A stretch of DNA of 62,932 nucleotides. Source: Deltaproteobacteria bacterium (GTDB lineage: Bacteria > Desulfobacterota > GWC2-55-46 > UBA9637 > GWC2-42-11). The notes beneath the pieces were generated by a model, which made no database searches, had not been told where the DNA came from, and was given only the letters and a program-made list of their open reading frames with translations. The stretch lies in the NCBI GenBank assembly GCA_016223005.1, contig JACRPW010000040.1, positions 1 through 62,932 of the forward strand. The letters run 5' to 3'. Made by a program: the position numbers and the translations under genes. This document shows positions 4,157 through 16,713 of this stretch, one piece after another (within the stretch, counting starts at the first letter, position 1; every line of letters starts with the position of its first letter).

Positions 4157-6523
4157 TTACCCTATAGTTGCCAGTTCAAACCTTTCCTGCCATCTATTTT
4201 TCAATATCACCTTTAAGATTCTATTTTCCTGCCTGATTAAGTCAGGGTCTTCCTTAACCAGATTAAATGCCTCATCCCTTGCATTTTTTAGCAAGGCTGC
4301 ATCATGCAGTAAATCAGATACCCTGAAGTCAGGGATACCTGACTGCCTTGTCCCAAGAAAATCACCTGGTCCCCGTATCTTTAAATCTTCTTCTGCAATC
4401 CTAAAGCCGTCGTTTGTTCCCTCCATAATCTTTAATCTTTTGTATGTATCAACAGAGCCGATCTTGTATGCAAGGAGCAGACAAAATGACTTATGTCCCC
4501 CTCTTCCAACCCTGCCGCGCAATTGATGCAGTTGTGATAATCCAAACCTTTCTGCATGTTCAATCAGCATAACAGTTGCATTGGGAATATCAATGCCAAC
4601 CTCTATAACAGTTGTGGATACAAGGATATCTATATCTTTATCCTTGAATGACTTCATTATATCCTCCTTCTCTCTGACATGCAGTTTTCCGTGGAGAAGT
4701 CCTATCCTGAAATCAGGAAATACATCCTTCTTTAAATGCCCTGCCATACTCGTTGCATCTCTAAGCCCCAATTCCTCTTTTTCTTCTATGAGCGGATATA
4801 CAATATAAACCTGCCTGCCTTTATTAAGTTCATCCCTTAAAACCCTGTAAATCCGTTCCCTGTCTTTTTCCCTAAAAACCATTGTATCCACAGGCTTCCT
4901 CCCTGAAGGAAGTTCATCAATGATAGAGACATCAAGGTCTCCGAAAACAGTCATGGTAAGGGTTCTTGGTATAGGCGTGGCAGTCATTACTACCATATCA
5001 GGTGATAACCCCCCTGCGCCTTTTCTTTTCAGCATTGCCCTTTGAATAACCCCGAACTTATGCTGTTCATCTATTACAGCAATGCCGAGTTTTTTAAATT
5101 CAACATCATCCTGTATCAGTGCATGGGTGCCGATGACCAGATTTATCTTCCCATCTTTTATTTGAGAAATAAGTTCCTTTCTTTCAGATTTTGAGACACT
5201 GCTTGTCAAAAGGCATGTATTTATGTCAACCTCACTGGCAAATTTATGGATATTCAGATAATGCTGTTCTGCAAGGATTTCTGTTGGCGACATAAATGCT
5301 GCCTGATACCCATTATCTATTGCTATTAAAACCGAGATGAATGCAACTATGGTCTTGCCTGAGCCAACATCCCCCTGTATCAGGCGATTCATAGGATAGA
5401 TAGATGACATATCATTTTTGATTTCAGATATAACCCTTTCCTGTGCAGTGGTTAATTTGTATGGAATGAGTCTTTTAAGTTTCTGACTACGGGCAGAGTC
5501 TGTGTTAAATGAAATACCACCCTCTCTTATAATATCCCTTTTTTTTATGGCAAGCCCGAGTTCAAGGAAAAACAGTTCGTCAAAGACAAGGCTCTTTCTT
5601 GCCAGAAAATCCTTTGAGTCCATGCACTCTAAACCTGCAGGCATATGGCACTGCCTTATTGCACTGCTGAGTTCCATAAGGGCATACCTTTTTTTGATAC
5701 TGTCGGGAAGTCCTCCAATCATAAGTCCGGCATATTCATTAACTGCATTCCTCATAATCTTTCTGACAGTCTTCTGATGGAGATTGCCCACACTTGAATA
5801 TACAGGCACAATGGAATTAAAATTAATTGAATCAAACCCTTCTCCTTCATCCGCTATCTCTATATCAGGATGGACAATCTCTTTCTGGTTATTAAATGCC
5901 CCTACACTGCCAAAGGCTATAATCCTCTGCCCTGCCTTATACCGCCTTTTCATTGCATTCAAACTGTAATTAAACCATTTGAGTTTCAAGATAGCGGAGC
6001 CATCGCTGATAACAATCTCAAATATCCTTTTCCTTCCGTAAAAGACCTCCCCCAGCACCATTATTTCACCTGCTGCCACATCTTTTGAACCCGGCAGAAG
6101 TTGAGAAATCTTTTTTATATTGCGTCTATCTTCATAGCGAAACGGGAGAAAGTAAAGCAAATCAAAAATTGTATCAACCCTTTTTTTTCTAAACCATTCT
6201 CCAACCTTAGGTCCAACACCTTTTACATATTCAATCTGCGTAGATAGTTTTTTTAAGTTATTTTCAATCTCTCTTATATTTGGAAGATGATATAAAATAT
6301 CTTTGGCAGTTTCATGTTTTTGTCTGTCATGAACCTCTGCCCCTTCGTTCAATATCCTTTTTACAATCTCGTGAGCCTTTGCAATTCTGTCTTTTTTATC
6401 TTCAACGCCTAACCTGTCAAACCCTTCAAATATATTTTTAAGTTCTGTTGCCTTATTGAGATTATCCTTGTGTGCTTGAGATGACAATGCCGTGTCGCAT
6501 ACCTTTTTTACAAAGGATTCCAT
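4157..6523 (-). CDS. recG: ATP-dependent DNA helicase RecG
   Basis: Wedge region LPFRYEDRR, Walker A GDVGSGKT, DEQHKFG, and helicase C motifs (HGKL...VSTTVIEVGIDIPNA...QLRGRVGRG). It carries an N-terminal extension of about 95 aa. Confidence 0.93.
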   Translation of the reverse strand: MESFVKKVCDTALSSQAHKDNLNKATELKNIFEGFDRLGVEDKKDRIAKAHEIVKRILNEGAEVHDRQKHETAKDILYHLPNIREIENNLKKLSTQIEYVKGVGPKVGEWFRKKRVDTIFDLLYFLPFRYEDRRNIKKISQLLPGSKDVAAGEIMVLGEVFYGRKRIFEIVISDGSAILKLKWFNYSLNAMKRRYKAGQRIIAFGSVGAFNNQKEIVHPDIEIADEGEGFDSINFNSIVPVYSSVGNLHQKTVRKIMRNAVNEYAGLMIGGLPDSIKKRYALMELSSAIRQCHMPAGLECMDSKDFLARKSLVFDELFFLELGLAIKKRDIIREGGISFNTDSARSQKLKRLIPYKLTTAQERVISEIKNDMSSIYPMNRLIQGDVGSGKTIVAFISVLIAIDNGYQAAFMSPTEILAEQHYLNIHKFASEVDINTCLLTSSVSKSERKELISQIKDGKINLVIGTHALIQDDVEFKKLGIAVIDEQHKFGVIQRAMLKRKGAGGLSPDMVVMTATPIPRTLTMTVFGDLDVSIIDELPSGRKPVDTMVFREKDRERIYRVLRDELNKGRQVYIVYPLIEEKEELGLRDATSMAGHLKKDVFPDFRIGLLHGKLHVREKEDIMKSFKDKDIDILVSTTVIEVGIDIPNATVMLIEHAERFGLSQLHQLRGRVGRGGHKSFCLLLAYKIGSVDTYKRLKIMEGTNDGFRIAEEDLKIRGPGDFLGTRQSGIPDFRVSDLLHDAALLKNARDEAFNLVKEDPDLIRQENRILKVILKNRWQERFELATIG

Positions 6524-6571
6524 ATCTTTAATTGAAGAAATAATCCAAAAAAAGCAGTTGCATTTTTTGGG

Positions 6572-7999
6572 TTACGCATTATTTGAGATAACATCATAAT
6601 CCATATGGGCATGCTCTAGGTTTGCAAATGCTGTAAATTTGTTCTGGAATGCAAGTTTAACCTTGCCTGTTGGTCCGTTTCTTTGTTTTGCAATTATTAT
6701 ATCTGCTGTGCCTCGTCTGCCGCAGGTGCAGGACAGGTCATGAGGACACTCACACGGCTTATAATACTCCTCCCTGTAGAGGAAAACCACTACATCCGCA
6801 TCCTGCTCTATAGCGCCTGATTCTCTTAAATCAGCCAACTGCGGCTCTCTATTCTCACCCCGGAGTTCAGGTCTTCTTGATAACTGTGAGAGCGCCACTA
6901 CCGGGAGATTTAGTTCTTTTGCCATTGCCTTTAGTGACCTGGAGATATCAGATATCTCCTGTTCGCGGTTGCTTGCACCGCCTCTTCCCCTCATCAGCTG
7001 CAGATAATCAACTATAACAAGACCCAGCCCATCCTTTTCCATCTTAAGTCGTCGTGTCTTTGCCCTCATTTCAAGAACTGTCATGGCAGGCGTGTCGTCA
7101 ATATAAATGGGGGACTCAGAGAGTGTTCCTGCTGCCCTGGTTAACTTCCCCCAGTGCTTATCCTCCAGAAACCCTCTGCGAATCCTGCTGGAGTCAACCC
7201 GTGCCTCTGATGAAAGCATCCTCTGGACAAGCTGCTCCTTGCTCATTTCAAGAGAAAATATAGCCACAGGAACCTTAGACTCTATTGCTGCATACTGGGC
7301 AATATTAAGGCAAAAGGATGTCTTACCCATGCTTGGTCTTCCTGCAACTATAATAAGGTCAGAAGGCTGAAACCCAGCAGTCATCTTGTCAAACTCAACA
7401 AAACCAGATGCAACACCTGTGATATGCTCCTTCTTGTCATACAATCTTTCTATAGTGCGGAATGTATCTTTTATAAGGTCTTCAATCTTAAAGAACGACT
7501 GCCTTATCTTGTCCTGTGATACCTGAAAGATTATCCTCTCTGCGTCATCTAAAAAATCATCAATCCCCTCACTGCCATCAAAAGAACGTGTTACTATCTC
7601 TGTCGCAGCAGTAATGAGCCTCCTTAAGATAGATTTTTCCCTTACTATTTTGGCATAGTAAGCAATATTAGCAGCAGTCGGAACAGCGTCTGCAAGGACT
7701 GCAACATACGATGCGCCGCCCACCGCCTCTATACTGCCTGCATTTCTTAAGGCATCTGAAAGTGTAACAATATCTATAGGTATGCCCTTGTCTGAAAGGG
7801 ATACCATAGTCTGGAAGACCTTTTTATGGGCATCCAGATAAAAATCGCTGCCATCCCCGCCTAGTATCTCAACAACCTTGTTTATTGCTGTATCGTCAAG
7901 CAAGATACCGCCCAGAATAGACTGCTCTGCCTCTATGTTCTGCGGCTGGACTTTATGCAGTGATGTATCATGAGACCTGCTGTTAGGCTGGATTGCCAT
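6572..7999 (-). CDS. dnaB: replicative DNA helicase DnaB
   Basis: N-terminal QNIEAEQSILGGILLD, Walker A GRPSMGKTSF, IVDYLQLM, and AKQRNGPTG. Confidence 0.95.
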   Translation of the reverse strand: MAIQPNSRSHDTSLHKVQPQNIEAEQSILGGILLDDTAINKVVEILGGDGSDFYLDAHKKVFQTMVSLSDKGIPIDIVTLSDALRNAGSIEAVGGASYVAVLADAVPTAANIAYYAKIVREKSILRRLITAATEIVTRSFDGSEGIDDFLDDAERIIFQVSQDKIRQSFFKIEDLIKDTFRTIERLYDKKEHITGVASGFVEFDKMTAGFQPSDLIIVAGRPSMGKTSFCLNIAQYAAIESKVPVAIFSLEMSKEQLVQRMLSSEARVDSSRIRRGFLEDKHWGKLTRAAGTLSESPIYIDDTPAMTVLEMRAKTRRLKMEKDGLGLVIVDYLQLMRGRGGASNREQEISDISRSLKAMAKELNLPVVALSQLSRRPELRGENREPQLADLRESGAIEQDADVVVFLYREEYYKPCECPHDLSCTCGRRGTADIIIAKQRNGPTGKVKLAFQNKFTAFANLEHAHMDYDVISNNA

Positions 8000-12469: not shown

Positions 12470-12588
12470 AAAAATTCAAAACTCAAAACGCAAAAGTCAA
12501 AACTACAATTCAAAATTCAAAACTTTTCATGAAAATAGTTTTAAGGTTTTGAGTTTCAGTTTTGAGATTTGACATTTGAGTTTTGAGT
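12470..12588. repeat. inverted arrays of degenerate TCAAAAN heptamers (long imperfect hairpin)
   Basis: Left arm is ttcaaaactcaaaacgcaaaagtcaaaactacaattcaaaattcaaaac. The central palindrome is ttttcatgaaaa. The right arm is made of complementary gttttga-type units. Confidence 0.85.
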
Positions 12589-12616
12589 TATCTTTAAAAA
12601 ACAGGAGGCAAGTTTG

Positions 12617-13078
12617 ATGACGGTTAAAAAAAATCCAAAGGCTTTAATCTTTACTGCAATACTGTGCAGCATGTTCTTGTTTGCGGTCAATAATGCAGTT
12701 GCAGCCCCGCAAGAAAAGACAAAGGCAGACCCTAGCAAAACTGGCACATGGAGCGGCAAAGGCGGGAAGGAATCAGGCAGGGAGAATTTTCTGGCATGGT
12801 GCATAAACTGCCATGGTGAAAAGGGCAAGGGAGACGGTCCATTGTCAACCACTTTGGGACAGGGTATAAAACCAAGAAATCTAACAGATTCTAAACTCCT
12901 GTCCACACGCAAGGATGATTTTTTGTTTAAGGTGATACGGGAAGGCGGGGCATCAGTGGGGTTTTCCGAAGCCATGATGCCGCATAAGGACATGTTGAGC
13001 GATGAAGAGATAAAAAATGTAATCCTTTATATAAGAAGCGATATATGTAAATGCAAATACCAGGGCAGCGGGAAATAG
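12617..13078 (+). CDS. monohaem class-I c-type cytochrome, secreted
   Basis: AGGAGG lies 8 nt upstream of the ATG. Signal peptide, CINCH haem-binding site, and a distal Met candidate (AMMPH). Confidence 0.85.
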   Translation: MTVKKNPKALIFTAILCSMFLFAVNNAVAAPQEKTKADPSKTGTWSGKGGKESGRENFLAWCINCHGEKGKGDGPLSTTLGQGIKPRNLTDSKLLSTRKDDFLFKVIREGGASVGFSEAMMPHKDMLSDEEIKNVILYIRSDICKCKYQGSGK

Positions 13079-13117
13079 TCCATTACCGCTGATATATTTC
13101 AAAAGAGGAGGGGGATT

Positions 13118-13747
13118 ATGCATTTAATGGGTTGGCTTGATGAAAGGACAGGGATAAAAGAATACTGGAAAAAAAAGAAGGCGCTCCTTATCCCAGACCA
13201 TGTAACATTCTTTTACTGTTTCGGCGGAATATCCCTGACAATACTTTTCCTGCAATTAGTCAGCGGGCTTTTTATGACGCTCTTTTATGTGCCAAAGCCG
13301 GAAGAGGCATTCAAAAGCATCCTACGCATGAGCAGTGAAATTCCACTGGGCGGGCTTACACGAAATATGCACCGCTGGGGCGCGACAATCCTTATTGCAA
13401 CAGTCATAACCCACATGTTCAATGTCTTTTATCACAAGGCATTTCAGAGGCCCAGAGAACTGAACTGGCTTTCAGGTTTTACCATGTTTATTGTGGTATT
13501 CCTGTTCAGCATTACAGGTATGATACTTCCATGGAACTGGACATCTTACTGGGTTCTTGTTATGTGGACTGATTATGTGGGCACATTCCCTGTAATCGGA
13601 CAATTTCTTACAGGACCGCTTATTGAATATTTCAGCGTAGTCCGCAGTTTTGTTATACATGTACTTATTCTGCCGCTCATCTCGGCTGTATTTTTAATAC
13701 TCCATTTCAAGATGGTAAAGAGGCACGGCATATCAGGACCGCTATAA
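13118..13747 (+). CDS. cytochrome b6-like subunit (cytochrome b N-terminal domain)
   Basis: Four TM helices with two His pairs (RNMHRWGATILIATVITH and FVIHVLILPLISAVFLILH). Strong SD gaggaggggg. Confidence 0.88.
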   Translation: MHLMGWLDERTGIKEYWKKKKALLIPDHVTFFYCFGGISLTILFLQLVSGLFMTLFYVPKPEEAFKSILRMSSEIPLGGLTRNMHRWGATILIATVITHMFNVFYHKAFQRPRELNWLSGFTMFIVVFLFSITGMILPWNWTSYWVLVMWTDYVGTFPVIGQFLTGPLIEYFSVVRSFVIHVLILPLISAVFLILHFKMVKRHGISGPL

Positions 13748-13820
13748 TATCATCTCATGGGATATTATTGTGGGGACAGATTTCAAATCCCCAGTTGCCA
13801 TTCATAGGAGGAGGGAAAAA

Positions 13821-14504
13821 ATGGACGAAAACAAAGACAAAGACCCAAGGTATGCCCCGCCGTATCCGCAGAACTTTCATCCGTTCTGGCCCAGACACGC
13901 ATTAAAGGCAAGTCTGGTTGTATCGGTTGTTGTCTTATTGATTGTGGGACTTGCGTATTTTTATGGTCTTCCGTCAGATTACACTATGACAATCCCTGAC
14001 GAAGGCATGTATATACCCGGTCCTGAGTGGTATTATCTCTTTTTCTTTCAGCCCTTCTGGTATTTAAAGGGCGGACTTGCAAAGTGGCAGTTTATTGCTA
14101 CCTTTATAATACCGCTTCTTGTATTGACATTTACTGTCTTGATTCCATTTATCTTTAAGAAACTAAAACCAGTCAGTGGTTTTGGTTTAAAGGTTATCAG
14201 GATACTGCCGCCTGCCATTGTTTTTGCTGCGATCATGCTGGGCATTGTTTTTAGCGGCTACCATGCTAAATTGAACGGCTGTATAGCATGCCATAATATT
14301 CAGGCAGGCGTGAGGCATGACCTGCCGCCAATGAATGTTCTTGAATATTACAAAGGACATAAGCAGGTTCAGATAAAGGTGGGCAAGTACCGTGCAAGCA
14401 AATCAGGCACAGAAGGCGAATCTGTTATAGGTCAGGAGATAGAGACATATAAGGACGCTAACTGGCATATGCGGCATCTATATGAACCGACATTTACATG
14501 GTAA
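13821..14504 (+). CDS. cytochrome bc/b6f subunit-IV-like protein fused to a C-terminal haem-c site
   Basis: SD aggaggaggg precedes ATG 13821. PEWYYLFFFQPFW motif, TM helices, then CIACH. The ORF-track start at 13770 is read through a palindromic repeat and is unlikely. Confidence 0.8.
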   Translation: MDENKDKDPRYAPPYPQNFHPFWPRHALKASLVVSVVVLLIVGLAYFYGLPSDYTMTIPDEGMYIPGPEWYYLFFFQPFWYLKGGLAKWQFIATFIIPLLVLTFTVLIPFIFKKLKPVSGFGLKVIRILPPAIVFAAIMLGIVFSGYHAKLNGCIACHNIQAGVRHDLPPMNVLEYYKGHKQVQIKVGKYRASKSGTEGESVIGQEIETYKDANWHMRHLYEPTFTW

Positions 14505-15649
14505 TGAAAATGACTCGTCTCATTTTTCTCTGCATACTATTCACTATTCACTGTTCACTGTTCACTGTAGTAGCACACGCCCAGACAATCAAAGAATTCC
14601 CCATCCCTACAGCATACAGCCGTCCTGTTGACATAGCGGCTGCCTCCAGCGGTGATATATGGCTTGTGGAGGAAAGTGCAAATAAACTTGCAAGGTTTGA
14701 TGTCCAAAAAGAGAGTTTTAAAGAGATTGACATACCATATAAAAATGCCGGACCATCCAGCATATCTATAAATGACGATGTTGTCTGGCTCACCCTTTCC
14801 CTTGATAACAGTATTGTAAGTTTCACTATTTCTTCAAAGACATTTAAAAGATTTCAGATACCAACCAATGATTCGGTACCTTATGGGGTTGCAGTTGATT
14901 CAAGTAGTATTGTCTGGTTCACTGAAAGAAATGCAAACAAGATTGGAAGGCTTGAACCGTCCACAGGCAAATTCAAGGAATATCCTGTTCCAACACAGAA
15001 CAGCCAGCCTGCAGGCATTACAATAGGTCGTGACAGCATGATATGGTTCGCAGAGGCAAATGGAAATAAGATTGGCATGTTAGACCCTGCAGCAGGAAGC
15101 ATAACGGAATATGAAATACTTACAAAATTTGCAAACGCATCACGAATAACAACAGATAATGAAGGCAATATCTGGTTTACAGAGCAGAGTTCAAATAAAC
15201 TTGGTATGTTTAATGTATCAGCAAAAAAAATCAATAATGCCATTATACCAACACCTGCATCTGTGCCAACAGGCATAGCAGTAGATAAAAACAATATAGT
15301 TTGGTTCACTGAAAACAGAGGCAATAAGATAGGCAGATTTGACCCTCAAATACCGCTTTTTACAGAATACGAGATACCAACCCAGCGGAGCCTTCCGACA
15401 GGTATAACCATTGATAAAAATAGCACTGTATGGTTTACGGAGGTTGACAGGGATGCTAATAAACTGGGGATGATAAAAGACAGTCAGGGGTCAGGGGTTA
15501 AAAGTCAGGGGCCAGGGGATTTTTCTCCTATCAGGGAGAAAAATGGTCAGGAGTCAAGGAAAGAGACATTTAGCATAATCAGCGGTATAATCCTTATATC
15601 TGCTGCAATTATTATTCTGTATCTGTCAAGGAGACACAAGGGGAAATGA
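14498..15649 (+). CDS. secreted 7-bladed beta-propeller (Vgb/streptogramin-lyase-like, NHL-type repeats) with C-terminal TM anchor
   Basis: Signal peptide ends AHA/Q. Seven blades of type (I/V)WFTE..NK(I/L)G. C-terminal helix IISGIILISAAIIILYL. An alternative start at ATG 14504 overlaps the upstream stop (TAATG). Confidence 0.8.
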   Translation: MVMKMTRLIFLCILFTIHCSLFTVVAHAQTIKEFPIPTAYSRPVDIAAASSGDIWLVEESANKLARFDVQKESFKEIDIPYKNAGPSSISINDDVVWLTLSLDNSIVSFTISSKTFKRFQIPTNDSVPYGVAVDSSSIVWFTERNANKIGRLEPSTGKFKEYPVPTQNSQPAGITIGRDSMIWFAEANGNKIGMLDPAAGSITEYEILTKFANASRITTDNEGNIWFTEQSSNKLGMFNVSAKKINNAIIPTPASVPTGIAVDKNNIVWFTENRGNKIGRFDPQIPLFTEYEIPTQRSLPTGITIDKNSTVWFTEVDRDANKLGMIKDSQGSGVKSQGPGDFSPIREKNGQESRKETFSIISGIILISAAIIILYLSRRHKGK

Positions 15650-16713
15650 AAAAGGCATTAAGAACTGCTTACTGTTCACTGCTTACTGCTTACTTCTTAC
15701 TTCTTACTGTTAACTGTCTTGCCGCTGATTCTGTTATCACATTTTATTCAATCCCCACGCCTGTTAGTTTTTCTGTCAGTATTACAACGGATACAAATGG
15801 CACAGTATGGTTTGCCCAGTTAAACACCAACAAAATAGCATCGCTGAATACGGAAACCTCTGTTTTTAAAGAATACAGCATACCTACAGCAAAGAGTTAT
15901 CCTACAGATATTGTAAGCGATGCAAAAGGTATTATCTGGTTTGCACAGCAGGACGCAAACCAGATAGCGCGGTTTGACCCTAAGACATCAAATTTTCAGG
16001 AATATGAATCGCCGACCCCGCAGAGTCAGCCTTCACGGCTTGCAATAGATAAAACAGGCGGCATCTGGTTCACGGAATTTTTTGGGAATAAAATCGGAAG
16101 GCTCTTGCCGTCAACAGGCAAGTTCAAGGAGTATTCTATACCAACCCCAATGAGCCAGCCAATCGGGATAACTGTTGATAATAAAAGGATTGTCTGGTTT
16201 GTTGAAAGTCAGGGGAATAAACTCGGAAGGCTAAATCCGTCAAACGGCGAAATCAAGGAATTTCCTATTCCGTTTCCATTCTGCGTGCCGAATGAAATCG
16301 CATTGGATAAAAAAGGCAATATCTGGATTAGTGCAAGAAAAGACAGGAAACTCTTGATGTTCAATCCTGCCTCATCAAAATTCAAAGATTTTACCCTTCC
16401 AGGAAAAGGCGTGCCAGAAGGTATATCAGTTGATGAAAACAACAATATCTGGTATGCAGATAAACGGGGCAGCAAGGTTGGCAGATTAAACCCTGACACA
16501 GGCGAGTTTCTTGAATTTAATATAGGCATTGCCAATGGACAGCCGTTTGACATAACGATAGGACAAAAAAATAGTGTCCTGTTCACCGAACTAGTAGATA
16601 ACAAAATCGGTAAGATTAATGCCTCCCTCCTCTCCAAAAGACAGCAGGATACAAGTACCCTCTCTATAAGCCTTGACGGACAGCAGAAAGACCTTTTGAA
16701 ACAGGGACATTAG
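15646..16713 (+). CDS. secreted 7-bladed beta-propeller, paralogue of the previous gene
   Basis: ATGA start/stop overlap with the previous gene. Signal peptide ends CLA/AD. Seven WF(A/T)(E/Q)..NK(I/L)(G/A) blades. Confidence 0.8.
   Translation: MKKALRTAYCSLLTAYFLLLTVNCLAADSVITFYSIPTPVSFSVSITTDTNGTVWFAQLNTNKIASLNTETSVFKEYSIPTAKSYPTDIVSDAKGIIWFAQQDANQIARFDPKTSNFQEYESPTPQSQPSRLAIDKTGGIWFTEFFGNKIGRLLPSTGKFKEYSIPTPMSQPIGITVDNKRIVWFVESQGNKLGRLNPSNGEIKEFPIPFPFCVPNEIALDKKGNIWISARKDRKLLMFNPASSKFKDFTLPGKGVPEGISVDENNNIWYADKRGSKVGRLNPDTGEFLEFNIGIANGQPFDITIGQKNSVLFTELVDNKIGKINASLLSKRQQDTSTLSISLDGQQKDLLKQGH

Follow-up and report, generated by a model that had tools for sequence, protein, structure and literature searches.

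Contig JACRPW010000040.1 of the Deltaproteobacteria bacterium assembly GCA_016223005.1, analyzed here from position 1 to 62,932 (this whole 63-kb stretch is the window, contig C94 of the genome), carries five tightly packed open reading frames (ORFs) on the + strand, spanning 12614-16713 according to ORF calling on the window. They encode a monohaem cytochrome c (gene 1), a b6-type cytochrome b (gene 2), a protein resembling subunit IV of cytochrome b6f complexes and carrying a haem c site (gene 3), and two beta-propellers (genes 4 and 5, propellers 1 and 2). As detailed below, these five genes very probably constitute an accessory block of the clade III (lactonase-type) nitrous oxide (N2O) reductase system, split in this genome from the reductase gene nosZ, which is located on contig C3. 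The clade III enzymes, L-NosZ, were recognized only in 2025 and are described as lacking the classical helper genes (PMC13477213, PMC13685413). The present analysis narrows the candidates for the electron supply of L-NosZ and for the acquisition of its copper centres.

The arrangement reported in a first-pass annotation of this DNA was found as described, with five genes on the same strand, minimal spacing, and the propeller starts overlapping the preceding stops, by TAATG at the gene 3/propeller 1 junction (14502-14506) and by ATGA at the propeller 1/propeller 2 junction (15646-15649). Gene 1, which had been described as a secreted monohaem cytochrome c, has an AGGAGG sequence 8 nt 5' of the ATG at 12617, its family matches agree with that description, and the product shows a single N-terminal hydrophobic segment (signal or anchor). 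No credible + strand terminator was found within the operon, and a promoter scan of it yielded promoter-like sites no commoner than in shuffled sequence. A TCAAAAN-repeat hairpin (12470-12588) takes up the 146-bp spacer in front of the operon, at the place where a promoter would be expected. Coordinates are collected in Table 1, together with the location of related genes in the same genome.

Table 1. Genes of the operon in the window and location of the remaining cluster components in the same genome (aa, amino acids).
Feature	Location	Strand	Details
Monohaem cytochrome c (gene 1)	12617..13078	+	about 153 aa; alternative TTG start 12614; CINCH; PF13442, PF00034
b6-type cytochrome b (gene 2)	13118..13747	+	209 aa; PF00033 at 4e-37
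Subunit IV-like protein with haem c (gene 3)	13770..14504	+	likely true start ATG 13821, in agreement with a database entry of 227 aa
Propeller 1 (gene 4)	14498..15649	+	alternative start 14504; Vgb_lyase 2e-82
Propeller 2 (gene 5)	15646..16713	+	Vgb_lyase 2e-90
Five-gene operon	contig C94 (window)		own genome
L-NosZ	contig C3, 28390-30081		own genome; 563 aa
Cytochrome c322	contig C3		own genome
Small lipoprotein	contig C9		own genome
Dihaem c, monohaem c, p184, ABC transporter	contigs C32/C33		own genome

Probable link to lactonase-type nitrous oxide reductase

Distant homologues of gene 3 led to larger gene clusters that include L-NosZ. Their consensus order is L-NosZ, small lipoprotein, [cytochrome b, (cytochrome c), subunit IV-haem c], propeller 1 and propeller 2, followed by the cytochromes [dihaem c, monohaem c] and c322, then p184, an ATP-binding cassette (ABC) ATPase and an ABC-2 permease. 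This order was found in three Nitrospirae loci (L010, L012 and L013), three Thermodesulfobacteriota-like loci (L014-L016) and 16 metagenome loci, and operon orthologues also adjoin L-nosZ in locus L034. The first gene of these clusters encodes a protein of 536-566 aa in which seven histidines have the same placement as in NosZ and the C-terminus bears a CuA motif, C-x3-C-x3-H-x2-M. There is no nosZ in the 63-kb window, and the counterpart in the same genome, on contig C3, is 76% identical to the first protein of the relatives' clusters. It aligns end to end with the NCBIfam model of the clade III lactonase-type N2O reductase, NF052460 (687.5 bits, with a curated cut-off of 700), versus 197 and 153 bits with the clade II and clade I models. 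The Pfam families nos_propeller and Lactonase both match over their cut-offs, and the alignment to Pseudomonas stutzeri NosZ (E = 2e-32) leaves the Cu ligands in register. The remaining components of the consensus cluster are scattered over other contigs, with an ABC ATPase and an ABC-2 permease after p184, and neither NosD (PF05048) nor NosL (PF05573) had a match in the genome.

The association was quantified in 301 evenly sampled genomes of the phylum, taking as orthologues of propeller 2 the matches with E <= 1e-90. L-NosZ was present in seven of them, and all seven carried a propeller 2 orthologue, in comparison with none of the other 294 (Fisher p = 2.4e-14); beyond these seven genomes the next-best match had an E-value of 3e-43. 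The gene for the subunit IV-haem c protein was found in four of the seven and in none of the 294. Viewed from the other side, L-NosZ is present in 7/8 genomes carrying the module, the exception being a partial metagenome-assembled genome (MAG) of 0.9 Mb. The propeller pair is therefore the component most tightly linked to L-NosZ, while the Rieske-less cytochrome b6 block, to judge from its sequence, is a frequent but optional module of presumed electron supply. In genomes G072, G108, G128 and G013 the propeller pair directly follows the lipoprotein of the NosZ cluster with no cytochrome b genes between them, G108 having a cytochrome b/subunit IV pair elsewhere in the genome. Gene 1 is likewise an optional member of the L-nos clusters, its orthologue lying between the cytochrome b and subunit IV genes in only some of the related loci.

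A metagenome scan with the propellers gave a sharp boundary. At 36% identity or more, propellers 1 and 2 occur together in all 45 loci, with L-nos neighbours wherever the flanks allow; at 35% or less, each of the 35 loci has a solitary Vgb-family gene and no cluster partner. L-NosZ was visible in 14 of the 19 loci with at least 3.4 kb of upstream sequence. The co-localization of propellers and cytochrome b module which the first-pass annotation would have expected in relatives does exist: in about 25 of 30 informative loci, propeller 1 comes immediately after the gene for the subunit IV-haem c protein. The two propeller genes overlap or lie within 2 nt of each other in 30/39 loci, a measure that takes the start codon closest to the upstream stop and is so biased to short gaps.

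The combination of genes had been considered in the first-pass annotation not to be a characterized complex; it belongs instead to the gene cluster of clade III L-NosZ, reported by He et al. (2025; Nature 646:152), as cited in PMC13477213. According to a review (PMC13685413), nosDFYL are missing from this cluster, whose products include b-type cytochromes and two components of ABC transporters. The clusters of the relatives show an equal gene set and order, without nosDFYL or nosR, with nosZ accompanied by a b-type cytochrome, c-type cytochromes and ABC transporter components, and the hosts are in both cases groundwater Nitrospirota and Desulfobacterota-type bacteria. The difference lies in the genome analyzed here, where the cluster is broken up and the five-gene block stands alone, with nosZ on another contig. 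The system is thus already known, if poorly understood, and the split arrangement of this new member is unusual. A literature search for the propeller pair, which did not extend to the primary report of He et al. (2025), found no mention of it.

Several details of these clusters were recorded along the way. At the site where the top PDB match of the L-NosZ on C3 reads DVSFGF, this protein reads DVIMGF. Wild-type P. stutzeri NosZ presumably has DVSHGF there, its histidine being, as we take it, a CuA ligand, and the L-NosZ on C3 may have a methionine in place of this residue. The Thermodesulfobacteriota-like MAG of locus L014 has the cluster cytochrome c and a NosD-like beta-helix domain joined in one protein (5670-6998, 442 aa), and NosF/NosY-like ABC genes follow p184; through these features the classical NosDFY machinery is linked to the clusters of clade III. 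The protein p184 (L015:12627-13178; C32:3633-4172 in the same genome as the window) is conserved, membrane-anchored and without family match, and is always encoded between the cluster cytochromes and the ABC transporter. Its two motifs, C-x2-C-H and then Y-C-x2-C-G-P-P, may mark it as a haem c protein that has an additional cysteine pair. The monohaem cytochromes c of the cluster end in an invariant C-x-C (ICKCKY, LCNCEY, LCKC), which in gene 1 is the ICKCKY encoded at 13045-13056 of the window and is also seen at L014:10941-11279, L015:11159-11530 and C32:4258-4611. This terminal motif, unusual among class I cytochromes c, might be a copper-handling or redox-active site.

Membrane module and the Rieske question

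The product of gene 2 can be aligned over its full length with cytochrome b6 of solved structure (E = 4e-45), in agreement with the first-pass assignment of a b6-type protein with both bis-histidine pairs. All four haem-ligating histidines are in register, the cysteine of haem ci is found in FYCFGG, aligned to FYCLGG of b6, these five residues are invariant in nine orthologues, and the helix D spacing is of the b6 type. The score with the cytochrome b6 model PRK03735 was 183 bits, under its cut-off. By these sequence characters, gene 2 encodes a genuine b6-type cytochrome b.

Gene 3 had no match in Pfam or NCBIfam, and a PDB profile search with its alignment gave nothing significant. Three hydrophobic helices are predicted, and the residues P85-E86-W87, P95-F96-W97-Y98 and C171-x2-C174-H175, the last forming the CIACH haem c site, are invariant in 20 homologues. 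A conserved tail, YKDANW..RH.YEPTFTW, completes a short periplasmic domain. In profile alignments the FHPFWPRH segment and the first helix correspond to residues 223-255 of full-length cytochrome b, and Pfam Cytochrom_B_C matches weakly 3/20 homologues. These data make a fusion of subunit IV with a haem c domain a reasonable, but not proven, reading of gene 3. Of the earlier description of this gene, the haem c site and the PEW motif have held, and the identity as subunit IV has moderate support.

Split cytochrome b proteins are characteristic of the b6f complex and of the Bacillus menaquinol:cytochrome c reductase QcrABC, in which the subunit IV protein QcrC bears a C-terminal monohaem c domain. 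The operon shares with them the b6 protein with ligands for haems bL, bH and ci, and its gene 3 product, with three predicted helices and PEWY, would be the corresponding subunit IV of a split cytochrome b, with a C-terminal monohaem c domain as in QcrC. Unlike in QcrC, the haem c domain of gene 3 is much shorter (about 75 residues) and has no Pfam family match. The operon also differs from QcrABC and b6f in being dedicated to one reductase and in having no Rieske subunit: the cluster has none, and no unattached one occurs in the rest of the genome.

The absence of a Rieske gene in or next to the cluster, already indicated in the first-pass annotation, was confirmed in the window, and the genome-wide search for a remote Rieske gene proposed in that annotation found none that serves the operon. 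The genome (a MAG of an uncultured groundwater bacterium, 1.8 Mb in 102 contigs, estimated 100% complete) has two PF00355 matches, on contigs C72 and C55, each with its own partner. The one on C72 immediately precedes genes for a different cytochrome b and a multihaem cytochrome c, and the one on C55, which has a Tat signal, is directly upstream of a 920-aa molybdopterin-type oxidoreductase, as in arsenite-oxidase-like pairs. Since both genes are tied to other enzymes and no Rieske gene was found in the related clusters examined, the Rieske-less trait is real and conserved. A literature search on Rieske-less cytochrome b complexes returned nothing useful. In PMC13122619, clade II nos clusters are shown with a Rieske protein and a cytochrome b. 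More generally, the electron-supply modules of other nos clusters (PMC13685413, PMC13122619) resemble the operon in combining a membrane quinol dehydrogenase and c-type cytochromes beside nosZ, and differ from it in containing a Rieske or NapGH-type iron-sulfur protein and no propellers.

Some peculiarities of these genes deserve mention. On C55 (26251-32132) two dihaem cytochrome c peroxidase/MauG-like genes precede the Tat-signal Rieske gene and the molybdopterin oxidoreductase, and the whole looks like an arsenite-oxidase-like (AioBA-type) module. The gene 3 homologue at L015:7001-7966 (321 aa) is enlarged by about 90 residues, with extra hydrophobic stretches, inserted between helices 2 and 3. 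In the closest relative, a stretch of about 22 residues (LAYWYRLPSDYNTVFPDDGMS) is present in gene 3 (L007:3908-4657) as two identical copies in tandem, and a 103-aa ORF with a flagellar-rod-like N-terminal motif lies on the - strand between gene 3 and propeller 1 (L007:4873-5184); either faulty assembly or a recent rearrangement could account for this duplication and the inserted ORF. A second, divergent cytochrome b/subunit IV-like pair (32-39% and 23-31% identity) is located beside the L-nos block in several metagenome lineages: it was seen in L062 (4594-5800), L063, L065 and L066, with L-NosZ not visible in the retrieved stretches of these four, and downstream in L051, L060, L068 and L071.

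Two propellers of the Vgb family

Propellers 1 and 2, both of the Vgb_lyase family, are paralogues that share 38% identity. Both have a predicted signal peptide, and propeller 1 has a C-terminal transmembrane helix at 358-376, as had been noted in the first-pass annotation. The seven blades assigned there to each protein are seen in the AlphaFold2 model of propeller 2 (28 strands; mean predicted local distance difference test, pLDDT, 88), and the blade motif WFxE..NK(I/L)G turned out to be less regular than claimed, being strict in about 5/7 blades of propeller 1 and 3/7 of propeller 2. The best PDB matches of the propeller 2 model in Foldseek are the Vgb lyases 2qc5 and 2z2n (TM-score 0.93, root mean square deviation 1.5 A, about 29% identity).

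The resemblance to Vgb lyases (2z2n, 2z2p, 2qc5) includes the seven-bladed fold and the blade motif, and does not reach the active site. The catalytic set, which we take to be His228, Glu268 and His270, is replaced by T/L/T in propeller 1 and by E/Q/F in propeller 2, when the positions are read by blade register against residues 221-292 of 2z2n, and none of the 14 blades has a histidine at the catalytic blade position. The PDB title of 2z2p calls the H270A protein catalytically inactive. The best scores with the NCBIfam Vgb models, 283.5 and 187.9 bits, are less than half the cut-off of 600. With their catalytic residues replaced, the propellers are not Vgb lyases, and they further differ from these in being secreted, membrane-tethered and present as a conserved paralogous pair confined to nos clusters. 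That they might be streptogramin B lyases or related small-molecule lyases or lactonases, with a role in resistance or detoxification and not in respiration, is hardly credible, even with the strong similarity in Pfam, NCBIfam and PDB. Annotators should be warned against labelling these propeller genes as streptogramin-resistance genes, which they are not.

No conserved His, Cys or Met was found in either propeller across 36-37 orthologues. They are consequently not redox enzymes, nor plausible carriers of copper, iron-sulfur clusters or haem, and on these sequence grounds the pair itself cannot be a redox protein. What is conserved among orthologues is the membrane anchor of propeller 1 and, in propeller 2, a C-terminal tail (LSI.L....LL) and the divergent blades 5-6. 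The tail is modelled at low confidence, as would be expected of a segment folding on a partner.

Vgb-family propellers of other bacteria are found in fusion with redox domains. Two Bradyrhizobium proteins of 408-410 aa (P0055 and P0068) have an N-terminal monohaem cytochrome c (CDSCH), and a 474-aa protein of Shewanella (P0050) is fused to a type-1 copper cupredoxin. In the two from Bradyrhizobium a histidine still occupies the catalytic position of the Vgb blades (SRPHD, TGPHG, KDPHT), a sign that they may form an uncharacterized subfamily of redox enzymes.

Proposed mode of action and alternatives

The co-occurrence and conservation data, along with the fold of the propellers and the loss of their catalytic residues, are consistent with the following scheme, and we consider it probable that the accessory block and the mechanism, taken together, are correctly described. 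As to electron supply, it is moderately likely that cytochrome b6 and the subunit IV-haem c protein form a Rieske-less quinol-oxidizing complex feeding L-NosZ. Quinol would be oxidized at a Qo-type site bearing PEWY, from which one electron would pass to the haem c covalently bound at the periplasmic end of subunit IV, and from there, through the monohaem cytochrome c and the other cytochromes of the cluster, to CuA of L-NosZ. The second electron would still cross the membrane as in b6f, as the retained ligands of haems bL, bH and ci suggest. The quinol-oxidizing module proposed in the first-pass annotation thus survives as a conserved cytochrome c/b6/subunit IV-haem c unit without a Rieske protein. 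The propellers as its periplasmic end partners do not, given that they occur with L-NosZ more regularly (7/7) than the subunit IV-haem c gene does (4/7) and have no conserved redox ligands.

The propellers would be non-catalytic. Coupled translation would yield them in a 1:1 ratio, and the C-terminal helix of propeller 1 would tether them to the membrane as a periplasmic pair, possibly a heterodimer, acting as an obligate partner of L-NosZ. With some reserve, for we rate it as somewhat short of an even chance, we suggest that this pair could serve as a docking or assembly platform keeping the Sec-exported reductase and the cytochromes beside the membrane module. A wider proposal, in which the pair, perhaps with the lipoprotein, is a new docking or assembly machinery replacing NosD, NosL and NosR, and a covalently bound haem c replaces the Rieske cluster at a PEWY-type Qo site in a new type of quinol oxidase, is speculative and on present evidence rather unlikely to hold as a whole. 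The propellers and the cytochrome b6 block stand out as targets for knock-out, co-expression and modelling of complexes.

Several observations weigh against this interpretation. The operon is not beside nosZ here, so that the link rests on relatives and on co-occurrence, and the L-NosZ of this genome scores 12.5 bits below the curated cut-off of its family model. The four L-NosZ clusters without the cytochrome b block indicate that this block is dispensable or replaceable, the PEWY Qo-type site has no Rieske cluster to work with, and the tight junction between the propeller genes is in part favoured by the way in which it was measured. For gene 3, hhalign to the C-terminal part of cytochrome b gave E = 9e-5 and a probability of only 60%, and the AlphaFold2 model (pLDDT 53) was too poor for a fold search. 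The operon sequence is present only in DNA data, namely four groundwater metagenomes, with no RNA run among them.

Maturation is the alternative that survives best, and we regard it as doubtful. The propeller pair would be a metallocentre maturation factor helping to build the copper centres of L-NosZ, CuZ or CuA, in place of the absent NosD and NosL, perhaps with the NosF/NosY-like ABC transporter and the lipoprotein. Such a role would fit with the presence of the propellers with L-NosZ in every case, as nosDFYL accompany clades I and II, while the electron-transfer genes vary, and with a genome that has no NosD or NosL and yet has an ABC ATPase and an ABC-2 permease after p184, as in L014; the lack of nosDFYL in clade III is also stated in PMC13685413. 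It is harder to reconcile with the absence of conserved His, Cys or Met that could bear copper or sulfide, and with the position of the propeller genes amid electron-transfer genes, from subunit IV or lipoprotein to the cytochromes c, and not beside the ABC transporter.

It is improbable that the detached operon has taken a general role, such as quinol:cytochrome c transfer to other oxidoreductases, and is no longer specific for N2O. The detached arrangement, with rseP-tsaB-usp upstream, is indeed kept in a family of loci (common to L007, L017, L018 and L035), but all the genomes with this arrangement retain L-NosZ, at 93% identity, and the genome analyzed here has a separate complete Rieske/cytochrome b operon for general use. 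Still less probable, and largely refuted, is an autonomous Rieske-less quinol module in which the propellers are the terminal redox enzymes or acceptors and no known reductase takes part. The isolation of the five genes from nosZ in the window, their tight junctions and the fusions of other Vgb-family propellers to cytochrome c or cupredoxin domains could have pointed to it, but the propellers have no conserved redox-cofactor ligands, co-occur perfectly with L-NosZ, adjoin it in most relatives, and do so also where cytochrome b is missing.

Returning to L-NosZ accessory function as the preferred interpretation, three other leads were followed and discarded. A link to the copper-efflux island downstream of the operon (about 17.9-23 kb) was dismissed because other downstream neighbours are found in L007, L017 and L018, and this adjacency is therefore not conserved. 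A match to ExtP (NCBIfam NF040969) indicates only a b6-type cytochrome b, since ExtO, a component of the ExtOPQ system of Geobacter, is itself a Rieske protein (PMC5877670). Extracellular electron transfer or iron oxidation was set aside as well, with no porin or multihaem cytochrome accompanying the operon and a far stronger link to L-NosZ; paired NHL propellers are present in the Uet cluster of Tenderia (bioRxiv 10.1101/2022.05.06.490989).

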